Source: a virus
Lineage: Duplodnaviria; Heunggongvirae; Uroviricota; Caudoviricetes
Length of the DNA: 31,991 nt
IMG/VR virus record: IMGVR_UViG_2563366883_000019
Location: 1-31,991 of that record
Direction: 5' to 3' (one strand)
Made by a program: the position numbers and the translations under genes. Each line of letters begins with the position of its first letter. Position 1 is the first letter of the stretch. Below are positions 19,837 to 26,328 of the stretch, one piece after another. The notes under the pieces are model-generated. The model was not told the DNA's origin. It did no database searches and saw only the letters and a program-made list of their open reading frames with translations.

Positions 19837-20028
19837 CTATCCGGAGTGACAATTAAATCTTGCTCGACGCCTTAGCCACCGGATATCCCACAGGTGAGCC
19901 GTATAGTTGAAGGTTTTAACATCAGATTCTTTGGGGACTGGCCTGGGTTTATTTCGGGAGCGTTTGGTTGGAAGGTAATTGCAGTTTTCACAGACGATAT
20001 CGGTGATGCTTCGTCGCTGTCGTCTCAT
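19837..20028 (-). CDS. ninE: NinE-like protein (63 aa)
   Basis: [27 protein letters not shown]...[15 protein letters not shown] resembles lambdoid NinE; position between ninB and ybcO matches the DLP12 nin order. Confidence 0.65.
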
Positions 20029-20435
20029 TCGTACCTCCTGTCGGTAAATCTGACACCCTGATCCACGGCCCAGGATGTTGTGTACTCAATCAGGCTTGCC
20101 ATACGCTTCACGCTCATTTGCGCACTGCTTTCGCGGATATTGACGTATTCACCTTCAAGACCTGGCAAAACATCAGCTTCCTGTTTTGTCGCCACGGCAT
20201 GACCGCTGATTAACAAAACTTTCCACTGTTCTGGTTTTAGCCACCTGCCGCACCACTTAACCTGGCGGGATATATCAGCGACCATCGCGTGAAATTTTGC
20301 ATTTTGAGCGAGATTACGCTTGTAATCGGTGATACGGATCGTAACGGGTTTGTCTTTATCGAGAGTTGTTGCAAGGATTGCGTTAATGGCGAATTGTTGC
20401 TGCTGCTTACTTCGGAGGAAGATAGTCTGGTTCAT
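20025..20435 (-). CDS. ninB: NinB recombination protein (136 aa)
   Basis: NinB-like motifs (QQQFAINAI...[25 protein letters not shown]); first gene of the nin block. Confidence 0.85.
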
Positions 20436-20462
20436 TATTCCCTCTCACTGGATTTTCCCAAC

Positions 20463-20482
20463 AAAAAAGGAGCCGAAGCTCC
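20463..20482 (-). terminator. Candidate terminator after the ORF6N gene
   Basis: GGAGC-TTCG-GCTCC hairpin followed by TTTTTTGTT on the minus strand (A-run on the other side, so possibly bidirectional). Confidence 0.45.
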
Positions 20483-20489
20483 TTTAGTT

Positions 20490-21158
20490 TCAGAATTCAA
20501 ATTGTCTTGCCCGCAGACTTTTCAGCATTGGCATGGCCCGCTGGATAACGGAACTTGACATGTCGAGACGTGTTACCTCCCTTAGTAGCGCGTCTCTGTT
20601 CTTCGTCACCATGTAGATGGTCTCAAACGCAATGTCATACAGCTTGTTCGTGTATGAGGAGTTCAGCTCTTTCATAATGGGATACAGGTGTTTGCTGAGG
20701 TCCTGGGCTTTTTCCATCCAGAGCTGCATGTAGCAAAGGAGGATGATTTCTTCGGCTGTGAATTGTGGCTGAATCTGCGGCTGCTGTTCGGTTGGTGCTG
20801 TTTTTCCCTGGCTGAAATAGCAGTCTTCCAGTTTTTCGAACACTTCCCACGCCCGATCGGTTTCGAGCATTTTTGCATGACGGGCTGCGCCGCGTTCTGT
20901 CCAGAGGATGAGGGAGCGAACGTTACGGGCAATTTTCACAGAAGGTCTTAAAGACATGCTGTGCTTAAATTCGCGCAACTTCTCATTCTCAAGTAAAAAG
21001 TAGTGCTTACCGATAACAAATCGTCCAGAATTCCGATTGAAATTTTTTCGGATGTAATCTGGTTCTGTGCCATATAAGCTGGCAAGAAGCTCTGTAGTCA
21101 CCACAGGTATATTACTAAATGAAATTATGGAGAGGGACTCCACGGAGATGGTTTTCAT
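20490..21158 (-). CDS. ORF6N / KilA-N-like DNA-binding protein (putative antirepressor-type regulator, 222 aa)
   Basis: N-terminal region (TTELLASLYGTEPDYIRKNFNRNSGRFVIGKHYFL...RSLILWTERGAARHAKMLETDRAWEVFEKLEDCYF) resembles ORF6N/Ant N-terminal domains; followed by a hairpin with a T-run. Confidence 0.65.
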   Translation of the reverse strand: MKTISVESLSIISFSNIPVVTTELLASLYGTEPDYIRKNFNRNSGRFVIGKHYFLLENEKLREFKHSMSLRPSVKIARNVRSLILWTERGAARHAKMLETDRAWEVFEKLEDCYFSQGKTAPTEQQPQIQPQFTAEEIILLCYMQLWMEKAQDLSKHLYPIMKELNSSYTNKLYDIAFETIYMVTKNRDALLREVTRLDMSSSVIQRAMPMLKSLRARQFEF

Positions 21159-21896: not shown

Positions 21897-22583
21897 TCAA
21901 AAAGTACTGGTTATCTTATCTATTAGATCAAATGTCTTCTCATCAATGTACCAGTACTTTTTATCATCATTTGGGTATTCAACGAAAACCGTCCATAAAA
22001 CCTCTTCCTTTTTAATGAAAGATAAAAGAAAAGTCTCTATATCCTTTGAATTGTCTTTGGGAATAACTGTAATAAATGAAGTCCATTTTTCCAACTTTTT
22101 ACTTTTTATCTGTTTGGCCTCCTTAGGTAGAAAAATTTTAGCATTTGATTCACGTTCCAGTCGGTCTAATAATTGTTTGGCATATATATCAACAGGAACA
22201 CTTATGTCACTTGCTTTATGACGTAATTCAATAGTTGGTGTATACTCGTTCGAAAAATAGAAAACACCATCACTGGGTGATGTTATCAGAGTCTTTTCTA
22301 AATATGTGTATTTGTATGTTATTGGATTAAACCAATAACAGTACCATTCTGGCTTTAATTGCCCGCTATAAGATGTGTTATTATTGTGAACCTTACACAC
22401 AGGATAAATGTTTTCTATATCAGTCCACTTACTTTTATCCTCTTTTTTTTGTGTGTCTATGACGTTTGAGGAGTGTTTTTGGTTGAACACTTGAATATTT
22501 AAAAAAACTAAAAGTATGTTTCCGATAATAGATGCAATAAGCATTTTCTTCAGTTTTGAGTTATCCATATGCATCCCCTTCAT
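21897..22583 (-). CDS. Low-GC hypothetical protein with N-terminal signal anchor (about 228 aa)
   Basis: Preferred ATG at 22583 overlaps the upstream gene's stop (ATGA); the ORF track frame starts at 22592 on TTG. N-terminal TM LIASIIGNILLVFL; Lys/Asn/Tyr-rich composition; no recognised domain. Confidence 0.6.
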   Translation of the reverse strand: MKGMHMDNSKLKKMLIASIIGNILLVFLNIQVFNQKHSSNVIDTQKKEDKSKWTDIENIYPVCKVHNNNTSYSGQLKPEWYCYWFNPITYKYTYLEKTLITSPSDGVFYFSNEYTPTIELRHKASDISVPVDIYAKQLLDRLERESNAKIFLPKEAKQIKSKKLEKWTSFITVIPKDNSKDIETFLLSFIKKEEVLWTVFVEYPNDDKKYWYIDEKTFDLIDKITSTF

Positions 22584-23056
22584 TGTGGACAATTACTCTT
22601 TGTCATAATTATAACTAAGTCATTATATTTCGTGTTTATTATGTTATAATGATATTTGAATATATAATTATACTCCTGCATCATTTTACACTCGCCAGAA
22701 TTTAATTTTTTTTGTATTTCTAGGCTCATTAAGTTTTTAATCTCTTCACCATCAAAAAATGGCGACATATCTTCATTAATCCCATAAATATTATAGTAAT
22801 GATTAAGTGTATTTCCTTCTACGGTTGCAGCAATCCATGTAGTATAATCATCTACTTTAATAGGGAATTTTTTCTTGGATAGTTCATTTTTTAAGTATGA
22901 GGCAATTTTATCTGCATCTTCTTTGTTCGATAAAATATCATCAATTTTATTATCACCGAACTCAGTTGCAATTATCTTTACAAAGATCAGCAGAATAATA
23001 AACATTAATGCTGTTCCTGTTTTTTTTATTGCTCCTAATATTTTGTTTCCTGTCAT
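22580..23056 (-). CDS. Low-GC hypothetical protein with N-terminal signal anchor (158 aa)
   Basis: N-terminal TM ALMFIILLIFVKIIA; translationally coupled to the downstream 228-aa ORF; a TTGACA -35-like hexamer lies upstream; no recognised domain. Confidence 0.6.
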   Translation of the reverse strand: MTGNKILGAIKKTGTALMFIILLIFVKIIATEFGDNKIDDILSNKEDADKIASYLKNELSKKKFPIKVDDYTTWIAATVEGNTLNHYYNIYGINEDMSPFFDGEEIKNLMSLEIQKKLNSGECKMMQEYNYIFKYHYNIINTKYNDLVIIMTKSNCPQ

Positions 23057-23233
23057 CTTGCAAATCTAACATAAAATTTAATGAGTCTTATTAATAAATT
23101 TAATTTCTTATGAGTTGTCAACCTTCCATCAAGCAAACCGTGATCTAACAGCATGACTGTCTGCTTGATATGTGTTGTCGTCAACACAGTACAGTCCTTG
23201 AATACATATAACAAATTTGTTATGTTGATACCT

Positions 23234-23563
23234 ATGAACTACACTATCGAATACTACAGTGAAGAGGTCCGGCTGGAAGTCGATCAGCTTCCATTGAGTA
23301 TGCGTGTCCGATACAAACATCTCATTGAACGTATGAAGGTATACGGCAGCAATCTCGGAGAACCTCATACCAGCGCCTTTGGTGATGGGCTTTTCGAACT
23401 CAGAATTAAAGGCAACGATGGGATTGCACGTGTTTTTTACTGCACTCTGACAGGGAAACGCATCATTATGCTGCATAGCTTCATTAAGAAAACGCAGAAA
23501 ACACCGCCAGCCGAACGCAAAAAAGCTGAAGCCAGAATGAAGGAGGTTAAGCATGACTGGTAA
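23234..23563 (+). CDS. Type II toxin, RelE/ParE superfamily, phage Gp49-like (HigB-type arrangement, 109 aa)
   Basis: Gp49-like motifs (GDGLFELRIKGNDGIARVFY...IIMLHSFIKKTQKTPPAE); 11-nt overlap with the downstream HTH gene; the ORF track frame starts further upstream at 23153. Confidence 0.8.
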   Translation: MNYTIEYYSEEVRLEVDQLPLSMRVRYKHLIERMKVYGSNLGEPHTSAFGDGLFELRIKGNDGIARVFYCTLTGKRIIMLHSFIKKTQKTPPAERKKAEARMKEVKHDW

Positions 23564-23861
23564 ACGCATTACACCTACCATGACACACGACGAAATGGCA
23601 GCCAAATGGATGGAGGATCCGGCTTTCAAAGCAGAATACGACGCCATCGCCGACGAGTTCGCACTGCTTGATGAAATGCTGGCAGCACGAAAAGAAGCTG
23701 GCTTAACCCAGGCTGAAGTTGCCGAACGTATGGGAACAAAAGCGACTGCGATCACCAGAATGGAAAGCAATCTTGCATCAGGTACAAGCGGCCCATCATT
23801 TGCCACACTGAAAAAATTCGCCCGTGCTACAGGGAAAAAACTCCAGATCCGCTTCGTTTAA
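23553..23861 (+). CDS. XRE-family HTH antitoxin (HigA-like, 102 aa)
   Basis: AGGAGG lies 6 nt upstream of the ATG; HTH motif LTQAEVAERMGTKATAITRME; toxin-first gene order. Confidence 0.8.
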   Translation: MTGKRITPTMTHDEMAAKWMEDPAFKAEYDAIADEFALLDEMLAARKEAGLTQAEVAERMGTKATAITRMESNLASGTSGPSFATLKKFARATGKKLQIRFV

Positions 23862-23915
23862 CTCCCCACTACCGCGCCGTCATTCTGGCGGCGCTTTACC
23901 CCAGAGAAATATCAA

Positions 23916-24161
23916 TCACCGGATTACCACATCCCACTCCGGCTCCTGCCATCTCAAATCCGGTGAATCATTTCTCTCAGGAATAACCATTACGTCCTTT
24001 TCCCTTCGCTCCCTTTCTATCGCCATCACAGCCAATGCTGCAACCATGATGTATTTTTGTTCGTCGGTTCCTGTTTCATAACGACGCATGAGGGTAAACT
24101 CGGGGCGATCAGTAACCTCAATGATTTCGTTAATTTCTTTAATTTCGCGAGGAATATCCAT
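23916..24161 (-). CDS. Hypothetical small acidic protein (81 aa); coding status uncertain
   Basis: ATG at 24161 with AGGAG 9 nt upstream; its start codon overlaps the start codon of the divergent plus-strand gene at the CATG palindrome 24159-24162. The ORF track frame extends to 24185. Confidence 0.35.
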   Translation of the reverse strand: MDIPREIKEINEIIEVTDRPEFTLMRRYETGTDEQKYIMVAALAVMAIERERREKDVMVIPERNDSPDLRWQEPEWDVVIR

Positions 24162-24834
24162 GGGTTTAGTCTCCTTTGATATCACATGCCCGCACTGTTT
24201 AAAAGAGCGAGCTGTTATTGAGGCATTTGCCGAAAAACAAATTGAAAAAACACCTTTTTTTAACGTCGCTTTTGTATGCAGAAGTTGTCATCGAGGAGGT
24301 GTTGCTATTGTTGAAATCCCATCAGACCACTATCACGGTCCCATGGCGGAAAGCCAGAAAAAAGACCTCGATATTCTGATTTCAGGAAATAGCCAGTACC
24401 GTTTCCGCAAGATCTATCCTGTGGTCAAAAAAATTACCGCACCAGAATATACACCCCCGGTTGCAGACCGTACTTTTGTTGAGGCAAAAGAGGATTTACA
24501 GAGGAGGCGGTACGACACAGTGGTTATTCTTTGTCGCAGAGTCCTCGATATCTCCACGAAAAAACTGCTCGGCGATGAAGCAGGAAAAGAATCGCTGTCG
24601 CAACGTATTCAGATGATTTACAAAAAAGGCCTGATCACTGAACAGATGAAGGAATGGGCTCATATTGTACGAATTGATGCCAATAAAGCAGTTCATACAG
24701 ATGAAGTTTTCACACCAATTGAGGCAAGCCAGATCCTGAGTTTTACCGAAATGTTTTTAGTCTACGCCTTCACTCTGCCTGCAATGGTGGAAGCCAGACG
24801 TGAACAAAAAAGATCAGATTCAGCCTCTATATGA
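24160..24834 (+). CDS. Zinc-ribbon protein with helical C-terminal domain (possibly DUF4145/HEPN-like, about 224 aa)
   Basis: ATG at 24160 with GAGG 7 nt upstream; CPHC...CRSC zinc-ribbon pair at the N-terminus; C-terminal region contains an R-x7-H segment (RIDANKAVH). Domain assignment is from memory and unverified. The ORF track frame starts at 24088. Confidence 0.6.
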   Translation: MGLVSFDITCPHCLKERAVIEAFAEKQIEKTPFFNVAFVCRSCHRGGVAIVEIPSDHYHGPMAESQKKDLDILISGNSQYRFRKIYPVVKKITAPEYTPPVADRTFVEAKEDLQRRRYDTVVILCRRVLDISTKKLLGDEAGKESLSQRIQMIYKKGLITEQMKEWAHIVRIDANKAVHTDEVFTPIEASQILSFTEMFLVYAFTLPAMVEARREQKRSDSASI

Positions 24835-24866
24835 ATCACTTTTCTGAACACGTAAGCCCCCGTCAT

Positions 24867-25298
24867 TCACGACGGGGAGAACATCAATCCCTCTGCACTC
24901 CCTCGCCAGAATGCCAGCACACGCTGCATCGTTTCGCTGTTACGGCACTCGCGACAAATTGTGTTGTAGCGTCTGTCGTAGCGCCGTATTTCCCCATCTG
25001 GTAATGCCCGGATAAGGTCTGGATCAACGACAACCGGTTTCTTCGACTTTGCCCTTGAGAGTTTTTTGCGGGCATTTTGCCAGTCCTTACGAGCCTGTTC
25101 AGACGGGAATACTCCGTAACCGGAATTGTAAACATCACCACTGGCGGCCAGCTCCATGCATAAACGACCGACAGACGCATGACTGACACCAATTTCATCC
25201 GATAACTGCCGAATCGTGCCTCGTCCGTTAAGGCGTACGAATTCCACGATCAGCCCCTTAATTTTTTCCCGCTCTTCTGGTGTAAATGCTCTTGTCAT
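24867..25298 (-). CDS. Winged-helix/HTH DNA-binding protein of unknown role (143 aa)
   Basis: ATG at 25298 with GGAGGT 5 nt upstream; HTH-like segment TIRQLSDEIGVSHASVGRLCMEL; IS1 lies 36 bp upstream of the start. Confidence 0.6.
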   Translation of the reverse strand: MTRAFTPEEREKIKGLIVEFVRLNGRGTIRQLSDEIGVSHASVGRLCMELAASGDVYNSGYGVFPSEQARKDWQNARKKLSRAKSKKPVVVDPDLIRALPDGEIRRYDRRYNTICRECRNSETMQRVLAFWRGSAEGLMFSPS

Positions 25299-25389
25299 AA
25301 GCACCTCCGGAGATCACTTTGTTGTCGGTGAATGGGTGATGCTGCCAACTTACTGATTTAGTGTATGATGGTGTTTTTGAGGTGCTCCA

Positions 25390-25665
25390 GTGGCTTCTGT
25401 TTCTATCAGCTGTCCCTCCTGTTCAGCTACTGACGGGGTGGTGCGTAACGGCAAAAGCACCGCCGGACATCAGCGCTATCTCTGCTCTCACTGCCGTAAA
25501 ACATGGCAACTGCAGTTCACTTACACCGCTTCTCAACCCGGTACGCACCAGAAAATCATTGATATGGCCATGAATGGCGTTGGATGCCGGGCAACTGCCC
25601 GCATTATGGGCGTTGGCCTCAACACGATTTTACGTCACTTAAAAAACTCAGGCCGCAGTCGGTAA
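25390..25665 (+). CDS. insA: IS1 InsA (91 aa, GTG start)
   Basis: Identical in recognisable motifs to IS1 InsA ([43 protein letters not shown]...). Confidence 0.95.
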
Positions 25666-26087
25666 CCTCGCGCATACAGCCGGGCAGTGACGTCATCGTC
25701 TGCGCGGAAATGGACGAACAGTGGGGCTATGTCGGGGCTAAATCGCGCCAGCGCTGGCTGTTTTACGCGTATGACAGTCTCCGGAAGACGGTTGTTGCGC
25801 ACGTATTCGGTGAACGCACTATGGCGACGCTGGGGCGTCTTATGAGCCTGCTGTCACCCTTTGACGTGGTGATATGGATGACGGATGGCTGGCCGCTGTA
25901 TGAATCCCGCCTGAAGGGAAAGCTGCACGTAATCAGCAAGCGATATACGCAGCGAATTGAGCGGCATAACCTGAATCTGAGGCAGCACCTGGCACGGCTG
26001 GGACGGAAGTCGCTGTCGTTCTCAAAATCGGTGGAGCTGCATGACAAAGTCATCGGGCATTATCTGAACATAAAACACTATCAATAA
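25584..26087 (+). CDS. insB: IS1 InsB frame (expressed as InsAB' transposase by -1 frameshift)
   Basis: InsB motifs ([21 protein letters not shown]...[13 protein letters not shown]); TTAAAAAACTC slippery site at about 25640. Confidence 0.95.
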
Positions 26088-26328
26088 GTTGGAGTCATTA
26101 CCAGGACAGTCGTTTTGTTTTATGTGGGTTAAATGGCAAAACACCAAGCCCATATATTCATGCTGCACGTGAAGTCGTCAGAAGCAACATTGGAGTACAA
26201 CAAATCCATACACTGGCGCAGGCTCTTGAGTTTGCAAGAGAAAATTCCGAGTGCGACTGCCCTGAATGCCAGCACGAAAAGGGAAAAACAACTCACAAAA
26301 CAGCAAACCAGGCAACCTTCCACTGAAA

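Follow-up and report, generated by a model that had tools for sequence, protein, structure and literature searches.

The window analyzed here is the whole 31,991-nucleotide stretch of the Caudoviricetes record IMGVR_UViG_2563366883_000019 (positions 1 to 31,991), and represents a lambdoid prophage. At positions 23234-23861, two overlapping genes are best explained as a functional type II toxin-antitoxin (TA) operon that follows the toxin-first HigBA pattern and encodes a Gp49-family toxin, a reading to which a probability of about 0.8 is given. It is favored because of the family and RelE fold of the toxin, its pocket residues, the pairing and overlap of the two genes, the selection acting on them, and a palindrome that occurs at the promoter throughout the family. 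The cassette is ordinary in kind: a Gp49/HigB-type type II TA module, already annotated by RefSeq.

The toxin-antitoxin gene pair

23234-23563, + strand: toxin gene; ATG start, 109 aa, beginning MNYTIEYYSEE; Gp49-family, HigB-type, RelE/ParE superfamily
23553-23861, + strand: antitoxin gene; ATG start, 102 aa, XRE-type helix-turn-helix (HTH) protein (HTH_3)
23540-23546, + strand: Shine-Dalgarno (SD) sequence AAGGAGG for the antitoxin, read from the sequence; located within the toxin gene near its 3' end and spaced 6 nt from the ATG at 23553

A sequence-only reading of this DNA had placed two open reading frames (ORFs) at exactly these positions, both on the + strand, in toxin-then-antitoxin order with an 11-nt overlap; the ORF coordinates bear this out, the overlap spanning 23553-23563. 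The pair was also said to lie on the other strand from the nin and late genes, and the genes for NinB, NinE, RusA, NinH, lysis, terminase, portal and capsid are indeed all on the - strand. In Escherichia coli EC2, a stretch 99.9% identical to the window carries the same two coding sequences in RefSeq, where the toxin product (WP_001624509.1) is named 'type II toxin-antitoxin system RelE/ParE family toxin' and the antitoxin product (WP_001624508.1) 'helix-turn-helix domain-containing protein'. No SD element such as AAGGAGG was read in the window sequence ahead of the toxin ATG at 23234.

Toxin homologues of 109-111 aa share the conserved N-terminus MNYTI. A longer, 136-aa reading of the toxin from an ATG at 23153 was rejected, as the homologues begin at MNYTI and the predicted promoter falls within the extension. 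A 225-aa antisense ORF (23129-23806, - strand) that spans both genes was considered as an overlapping gene and rejected as a shadow ORF: an antisense frame of at least 200 aa remains open in 80% of synonymous-codon permutations of both sense genes, and 63 of 78 relatives do not keep the frame intact. A short piece of this ORF is annotated as a hypothetical protein in the GenBank and RefSeq records of POCJ13, a Shiga toxin (Stx)-converting Shigella phage. Rfam gave zero RNA families within 22500-24900.

Family and fold of the toxin

The toxin matches Pfam Gp49 (PF05973) at 89.3 bits (cut-off 23.9, E=1.8e-25) over profile positions 3-90 of 90. A hidden Markov model scan had been named as a check on the pair, and in it Gp49 and HTH_3 both scored above their cut-offs. 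The best sequence match of the toxin in the PDB is HigB of Streptococcus pneumoniae (6AF3/6AF4, E=8.7e-6; 4.8e-9 with a 30-sequence profile), and the profile also recovered HigB1 of Mycobacterium tuberculosis. In NCBIfam, solely sub-threshold matches were obtained for toxin and antitoxin; the toxin reached 21.3 bits against TIGR02683 (upstrm_HI1419 RelE/ParE toxin equivalog), below the cut-off of 62.85, and is related to this equivalog, not a member of it.

The AlphaFold2 model of the toxin is confident, with a predicted local distance difference test score (pLDDT) of 91.5 and a predicted template-modeling score of 0.85. Its elements are a strand at residues 4-7, helices at 10-17 and 21-37, four strands over 46-85, and a helix at 92-108; that is, two N-terminal helices, a four-stranded antiparallel sheet and a long C-terminal helix, as in the RelE/BECR fold. 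The long alpha-3 helix is a trait of Gp49-like toxins (PMC9098466). Foldseek ranked S. pneumoniae HigB (6AF4/6AF3) first, with E of about 2e-7 and template-modeling scores (TM) of 0.73-0.77, then M. tuberculosis HigB1 (7NBU/7AWK, TM 0.73-0.75), followed by archaeal and bacterial RelE (1WMI, 2KHE, 3BPQ). A RelE fold was therefore found, and together with the PF05973 match it upholds the Gp49/RelE-like assignment made earlier from the letters.

It is very improbable that the toxin is a ParE-like gyrase poison instead of an mRNase. The generic RefSeq name 'RelE/ParE family toxin' would accommodate such an activity, and ParE2 and ParE1 do appear low in the Foldseek list; however, the Pfam scan of the toxin gave no match to ParE (PF05016), and ParE structures scored far below those of HigB and RelE (7R5A, E=0.028, TM 0.45; 8C24, E=0.19; TM range 0.36-0.45, compared with E from 2e-7 to 1e-3 and TM from 0.52 to 0.77, normalized to the query). 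The catalytic Arg, Lys and Glu of the RelE type are also present in the toxin.

HigB2 of Vibrio cholerae is not a Gp49 protein; it is filed under PF06296 (PMC11980606), and its structure (5JAA) is found by Foldseek at E=3.9e-3 and TM 0.53.

The catalytic pocket of the toxin

A profile alignment of the toxin to HigB1 of M. tuberculosis was read against the catalytic pocket defined experimentally in that protein, which consists of K58, E66, R68, N73, R77, F93, K95, Q98 and K99 (PMC9098466). Seven of the nine residues are identical:

HigB1 E66: toxin E55
HigB1 R68: toxin R57
HigB1 R77: toxin R66
HigB1 F93: toxin F83
HigB1 K95: toxin K85
HigB1 Q98: toxin Q88
HigB1 K99: toxin K89
HigB1 K58: toxin S47 (substituted)
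HigB1 N73: toxin D62 (substituted)

The core Arg/Lys/Glu set is complete, and the two positions that differ, those of K58 and N73, are substrate contacts. Among 30 homologues the seven kept residues are invariant or at least 90% conserved. In HigB1, exchange of K95 for alanine abolishes toxicity, and the C-terminal helix contacts the P-site tRNA, the same helix being acidic in the non-toxic paralogues of M. tuberculosis (PMC9098466). In the toxin of the window this helix is basic, with R101, K103 and K106 aligning with R111, K113 and K116 of HigB1.

Selection was measured against an 88.7%-identical copy in another prophage. The ratio of nonsynonymous to synonymous substitution rates (dN/dS) came to 0.036 in the toxin gene and to 0.053 in the antitoxin gene, low values that imply that both genes are maintained by strong purifying selection. 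Selection on the toxin argues for a live toxin, although it falls short of proof.

These data bear on an unlikely alternative, in which the toxin is a catalytically dead relic like HigB2 and HigB3 of M. tuberculosis and the HTH protein serves as a transcription factor only, for example for neighboring prophage genes. Two of the nine HigB1 pocket residues are replaced, and paralogues without such residues are non-toxic; moreover, in the phage PhiR5_2 the 5' end of the toxin gene has been replaced and its annotation is truncated, so that loss of the toxin is tolerated in some phages. The invariance or near-invariance of the seven pocket residues over 30 homologues, including K85 (the equivalent of HigB1 K95), speaks against a dead enzyme, as does the basic C-terminal helix, which is acidic in HigB2 and HigB3. 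The dN/dS of the toxin is as low as that of the antitoxin, and the strict pairing with translational overlap in 79 of 80 loci, described below, is what a live toxin would enforce.

The antitoxin

The antitoxin matches Pfam HTH_3 at 43.2 bits (cut-off 23, E=4e-11); in NCBIfam it stays below threshold against various HTH antitoxin and repressor models. Its AlphaFold2 model (pLDDT 87) is all-helical, with a helix at residues 12-20, a long helix at 23-49 and then an XRE-type HTH, and the protein ends 4 residues past the HTH domain, as do most homologues. Foldseek returned XRE, HipB and C-protein folds, and also HigA of 6AF3 and HigA2 of M. tuberculosis. The profile match, the model and these folds agree with the earlier call of an XRE antitoxin. 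The best PDB sequence match is HigA of S. pneumoniae HigBA (6AF3_B, E=6e-4); each of the two proteins thus finds its best PDB sequence match in a chain of one crystal complex, S. pneumoniae HigBA (6AF3/6AF4).

Conservation of the pair across species

When one genome was taken per species, 80 loci with toxins 59-89% identical were obtained, spanning Gamma- and Betaproteobacteria, Nitrospirota and Desulfobacterota. An antitoxin homologue (43-90% identity) begins within the last few toxin codons in 79 of these; in the sole exception, the contig ends 65 nt past the toxin. The genes overlap by 14 or 11 nt, and an SD-like core lies ahead of the antitoxin start in 56 of the 61 scorable loci. Because the pair recurs in 79/80 other-species loci and matches Gp49 (E=1.8e-25) and HTH_3 (E=4e-11), it is far beyond chance. 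Gp49-family toxins have been described as ribosome-dependent mRNases, with the gene order toxin-antitoxin (PMC11980606).

Putative promoter, operator and translation signals

23171-23188, + strand: inverted repeat TGTGTTG-N4-CAACACA, 7-nt arms, 100% complementary, just 5' of the putative -35
23198-23203, + strand: putative -35 hexamer TTGAAT, 17 nt upstream of the -10-like hexamer
23208-23223, + strand: putative antitoxin operator, perfect 16-bp palindrome ATAACAAATTTGTTAT, reaching across the promoter spacer into the start of the -10
23221-23226, + strand: putative -10 hexamer TATGTT, ending 7 nt ahead of the ATG at 23234
23874-23894, + strand: GC-rich hairpin GCGCCGTCA-TTC-TGGCGGCGC followed by TTT, 9-bp stem, between the convergent antitoxin gene and the ORF 23916-24185 (- strand)

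Apart from a palindrome block, the 110 nt upstream of the toxin gene are unrelated among the 80 loci. The core of the palindrome, AACA-N4-TGTT, stands no more than 60 nt ahead of the toxin start in 64 of the 80 loci, where the background rate in the same loci predicts 0.05; in 59 loci it stands at -23 or -24. In most relatives the right half-site leads straight into a hexamer of the form TAnnnT (TATTAT, TATCAT, etc.), which begins with the palindrome's last T and stops 6-7 nt short of the start codon, and TTG represents the majority base at the -35 spacing in the 64 motif-anchored relatives. An SD-like core ahead of the toxin start was seen in none of the 80 loci.

The palindrome overlapping the -10 is a strong phylogenetic footprint, at which the antitoxin may bind and repress its own operon. 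The simplest reading is a predicted sigma-70 promoter whose -10 is fused to the antitoxin operator. A -10 so close to the start, together with the lack of a toxin SD, suggests that the toxin mRNA is probably leaderless or nearly leaderless; an autorepressed transcript of this type is proposed because the palindrome overlaps the -10-like hexamer and because no toxin gene has an SD. This putative operator/-10 fusion, family-wide and with a probable leaderless toxin mRNA, may be counted as a mildly new element. A leaderless toxin with an operator-fused -10 and an internal antitoxin SD was not found described in the literature searched.

The generic promoter and terminator scan gave nothing usable at the module, and the promoter is proposed because of its comparative conservation. 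The terminator scan did not list the downstream hairpin because its T-run is just 3 nt long; the hairpin folds at -17.6 kcal/mol (z = -3.76), none of 200 shuffled sequences being as stable, and is a probable terminator with a weak tail. With its own promoter-like element upstream and a hairpin downstream, the module may well be transcribed independently, in line with what the sequence-only reading had claimed from its orientation. The inverted repeat at 23171-23188 is restricted to the nearest relatives, being present in EC2 and POCJ13 and in part in PhiR5_2, and is not family-wide; it could be a second operator, or part of a divergent promoter of the AT-rich genes on that side, and perhaps lies outside the module.

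Proposed mode of action

In the favored reading, the operon would be driven by its own sigma-70-type promoter (-35 at 23198-203, -10 at 23221-226), independent of the early and late transcripts of the phage. The toxin would be poorly translated from its leaderless or nearly leaderless 5' end, and the antitoxin well translated from the strong internal SD and by coupling over the 11-nt overlap; such weak toxin and strong antitoxin translation would give an excess of antitoxin despite its second position in the operon. The N-terminal helices of the antitoxin would bind and neutralize the toxin, and a dimer of its C-terminal HTH would sit on the TAACA-N4-TGTTA palindrome over the -10, so that the operon is repressed. 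When the antitoxin supply ends, through loss of the DNA or a block of host expression, the toxin would be freed, enter the ribosomal A site and cleave mRNA as HigB1 of M. tuberculosis does, and translation would stop.

A comparative by-product of this work is a testable hypothesis on how toxin-first TA operons may keep their antitoxin in excess, put forward because of the fixed operator/-10 fusion, the lack of a toxin SD in 80/80 loci and the strong antitoxin SD. The setting of the toxin:antitoxin ratio in such reverse operons was stated as an open point in work on HigBA of Acinetobacter baumannii, which looked for an internal antitoxin promoter and found none (PMC5906591).

Comparison with known systems

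HigBA of S. pneumoniae (6AF3/6AF4) gives both proteins together their best match in sequence and structure. It is likewise toxin-first, with a Gp49-type toxin that has a long C-terminal helix and an antitoxin made of an N-terminal extension and an XRE HTH. Unlike the pair studied here, it is located on a Gram-positive chromosome and not in a prophage, and the N-terminus of its toxin is longer (141-aa construct). The two toxins share about 20% identity over the structural alignment.

HigB1 of M. tuberculosis (Rv1955; 7AWK, 7NBU; PMC9098466) shares with the toxin its Pfam family, fold, most pocket residues and basic C-terminal helix, and is the best template for the probable action of the toxin, cleavage of mRNA in the A site of the ribosome. 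It differs in that K58 and N73 are not conserved in the toxin of the window, at an overall identity of about 24%, and in that it belongs to a three-gene TA-chaperone (TAC) system that includes a SecB-like chaperone and whose antitoxin bears a ChAD tail, neither of which accompanies the pair in the window. A third gene of the TAC/HigBAC type is not present; the gene that follows downstream points the other way and matched no family.

For the proposed regulation and addiction, the best functional precedent is HigBA2 from a plasmid of A. baumannii, which also has a Gp49-domain toxin first and an XRE antitoxin. HigBA2 is toxic, acts as an RNase, is transcribed as one mRNA and stabilizes an unstable plasmid; it is repressed by its antitoxin and more strongly by the complex (PMC5906591). 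In contrast to the window pair, it belongs to a different subclade and is plasmid-borne. An A. baumannii-type antitoxin (plasmid CP010369) shows 29% identity to the window antitoxin over 77 aa.

The cassettes of the POCJ13, 75/02 and EC2 type resemble that of the window in position, between DUF977/DUF4145 and ORF6N-ninB genes, and are labeled by RefSeq as RelE/ParE toxin and transcriptional regulator; the prophages differ in that their replication and immunity regions are intact. A further type II TA system within a lambdoid cryptic E. coli prophage is paaR2-paaA2-parE2 of CP-933P (PMC8630535), which differs in having a toxin of the unrelated ParE class, the reverse gene order and three components, and in lying in the immunity region. 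Its paaA2-parE2 module is addictive and has been proposed to limit rearrangements of the prophage region (PMC8630535). Literature searches on POCJ13, on TA systems of Stx phages and on leaderless HigB found no description of the cassette or its function, and no experimental work on the cassette or a close homologue was found in the literature.

Possible roles: addiction or defense

Several points weigh against a functional HigBA-type operon. The case is computational throughout, from toxicity, neutralization and RNA cleavage to operator binding and the start of transcription. The pocket carries S47 and D62 at the positions of K58 and N73, and the Gp49 paralogues HigB2 and HigB3 of M. tuberculosis, which are without several pocket residues including these two, are non-toxic (PMC9098466). 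The characterized relatives are distant, with about 20-25% identity to S. pneumoniae HigB and M. tuberculosis HigB1, and the presumed A. baumannii-type HigB (a 357-bp gene on plasmid CP010369) shows 25% identity over 51 aa. The promoter hexamers in the window are weak, with 8/12 matches, under the 9/12 threshold of the generic scan, and the tail of the terminator consists of 3 T. Deletion of higBA2 did not destabilize the native A. baumannii plasmid (PMC5906591).

By analogy, both roles suggested earlier for such a module, stabilization of the element or abortive infection, would be reasonable. Of the effects that selection may have favored, addiction appears the most likely; by it the cassette would stabilize itself and the surrounding accessory region and prophage; it is supported by the precedents of A. 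baumannii HigBA2 on an unstable plasmid and of paaA2-parE2 in CP-933P. Protection from other phages is a possible additional effect.

A doubtful but more substantial alternative than those concerning the toxin chemistry is that anti-phage defense, as abortive infection or superinfection exclusion by the lysogen, is the primary role; the parts would be the same and the selected function different. An incoming phage would halt host transcription or trigger loss of the antitoxin, and the mRNase would arrest translation before the invader finishes its cycle. The cassette occupies the accessory hot spot that separates ninB from the replication genes. Its opposite orientation and a putative promoter of its own would allow expression in the lysogen, and its neighbors include candidate defense or moron genes (DUF4145 with a weak PD-T7-4 match, ORF6N with PDC-S05). 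HigB-type toxins do defend in other architectures, such as PD-lambda-2 and HigBAC, the latter triggered by lambda gpV; however, these known HigB-based systems also depend on a sensor as third component, either a SecB-like chaperone or an Xre-peptidase, and the pair has none beside it. Other TA-like genes stand at the equivalent site in O157:H7 Stx2a phages, suggesting a turnover typical of defense loci. Against the defense role, the cassette itself is rare, with 19/5426 complete E. coli genomes at 80% coverage or more. PADLOC-DB v2 assembles no system from the pair; the sole match of the toxin is partial (the C-terminal 50 positions of NsnC, E=2.4e-10), and those of the antitoxin are generic HTH profiles (capH, HTH_VI, RmrA).

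A combined proposal is similarly tentative. A sensor-less HigBA would act in prophage abortive infection or superinfection exclusion as one of several interchangeable cassettes at the replication-ninB hot spot of Stx-type phages, and its ratio architecture of leaderless toxin, operator-fused -10 and internal SD would extend throughout the subfamily.

Distribution and mobility of the cassette

Among 5426 complete E. coli genomes, the cassette was covered to at least 80% in 19 and is chromosomal and rare; any match was found in 73, many of them with just a 69-nt remnant. In the Stx-converting Shigella phages POCJ13 and 75/02, the cassette DNA is 99% identical, the toxin 100% identical and the map position the same. 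Because of this 99% identity with Shiga-toxin-converting phages, the cassette could aid prophage retention or phage-phage exclusion in pathogenic E. coli and Shigella. An 88.7%-identical copy is found in an unrelated prophage backbone, beside ash and ymfL-type genes. The same cassette in Stx phages and in this different prophage type shows that it moves as a unit.

The copy in PhiR5_2 is 87% identical, and its toxin gene (at about 5890-6190 of the phage locus) is mosaic at the 5' end. Resemblance of the DNA to the window sets in only at module nt 142, and the canonical start reads ATA; the record annotates a 76-aa truncated 'HigB', and the antitoxin is intact. This may be a case of toxin decay with the antitoxin kept.

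At the equivalent site, the Stx2a prophages of O157:H7 retain no more of the cassette than the final 69 nt of the antitoxin gene (about 95% identity, unannotated). This remnant, for example at 3501-3569 of the locus in E. coli O157:H7 6535WT, is flanked by a ParD-family antitoxin gene and a hypothetical gene on one side and by a HigA-family antitoxin gene on the other; the ParD- and HigA-family antitoxin genes of these prophages have been discussed as 'orphan antitoxins' (PMC12502783). Because an antitoxin remnant stands here amid other antitoxin genes, the site looks like a cassette-exchange hot spot, and the remnant resembles a replacement scar.

More distant Gp49 relatives abound on plasmids (3679 records at E <=1e-10, mostly Klebsiella) and in linear plasmid-prophages of the N15/phiKO2 type, the namesakes of the family. 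The closest plasmid-borne relative of the toxin, with 62% identity and an HTH partner, is located on Acinetobacter nosocomialis plasmid p6411-89.111kb (21686-22289). It adjoins a BRO-family gene, and a complete BREX-1 system (26713-42151) lies about 5 kb away; the plasmid also bears two copies of a different Gp49-type HigBA. The 62%-identical Acinetobacter plasmid toxins were considered as the characterized HigBA-Ab and rejected, the gene of HigBA-Ab size (357 bp, CP010369) being just 25% identical over 51 aa.

Prophage setting and neighboring genes

The integrase, RecE, Gam, Bet and Exo genes of the prophage lie on the + strand at the right end of the window, and the nin, Q-region, lysis and morphogenesis genes on the - strand. 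The module (48-51% GC) is located in a mosaic accessory segment between a DUF977 gene (24867-25304, - strand) and an ORF6N/antirepressor-like gene with ninB (20025-21158, - strand). Its description as part of a prophage accessory region is therefore correct, the module standing between the replication genes and ninB.

At 25335-26102 the window contains a 768-bp IS1 (InsA/InsB ORFs; NCBIfam IS1 transposase), in place of about 4.5 kb that hold DUF1627, DnaC-like, O-like, cII and kil genes in the EC2 prophage, which is otherwise 99% identical. With IS1 in place of the replication and immunity region, the prophage of the window is defective. A decayed prophage thus still bears an apparently intact addiction or defense cassette, a point of modest impact.

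On the upstream side of the module, two adjacent genes at 21897-23056 (- strand; 231 and 158 aa) have 27-33% GC and encode hydrophobic N-termini. Pfam and PADLOC gave no match for either protein; judged by eye from these N-termini, the products are probably membrane proteins. The sharp contrast in GC with both the TA genes and the phage backbone makes the two genes look like a separately acquired moron, divergently transcribed from the TA operon.

Directly downstream of the TA genes are a small ORF at 23916-24185 (- strand), for which no family match was obtained, and the gene of a DUF4145 protein at 24160-24834 (+ strand); the two diverge from each other and overlap at their 5' ends. In PADLOC, the DUF4145 protein weakly matches PD-T7-4 (E=0.002). 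Both genes accompany the TA pair in POCJ13, EC2 and PhiR5_2; they could form a further accessory or defense cassette. The neighbors of the module also include a DUF805 gene. Next to ninB, the antirepressor-like protein at 20490-21158 (- strand), with ORF6N and P22_AR_C domains, matches the PADLOC candidate PDC-S05 at E=2.8e-6.

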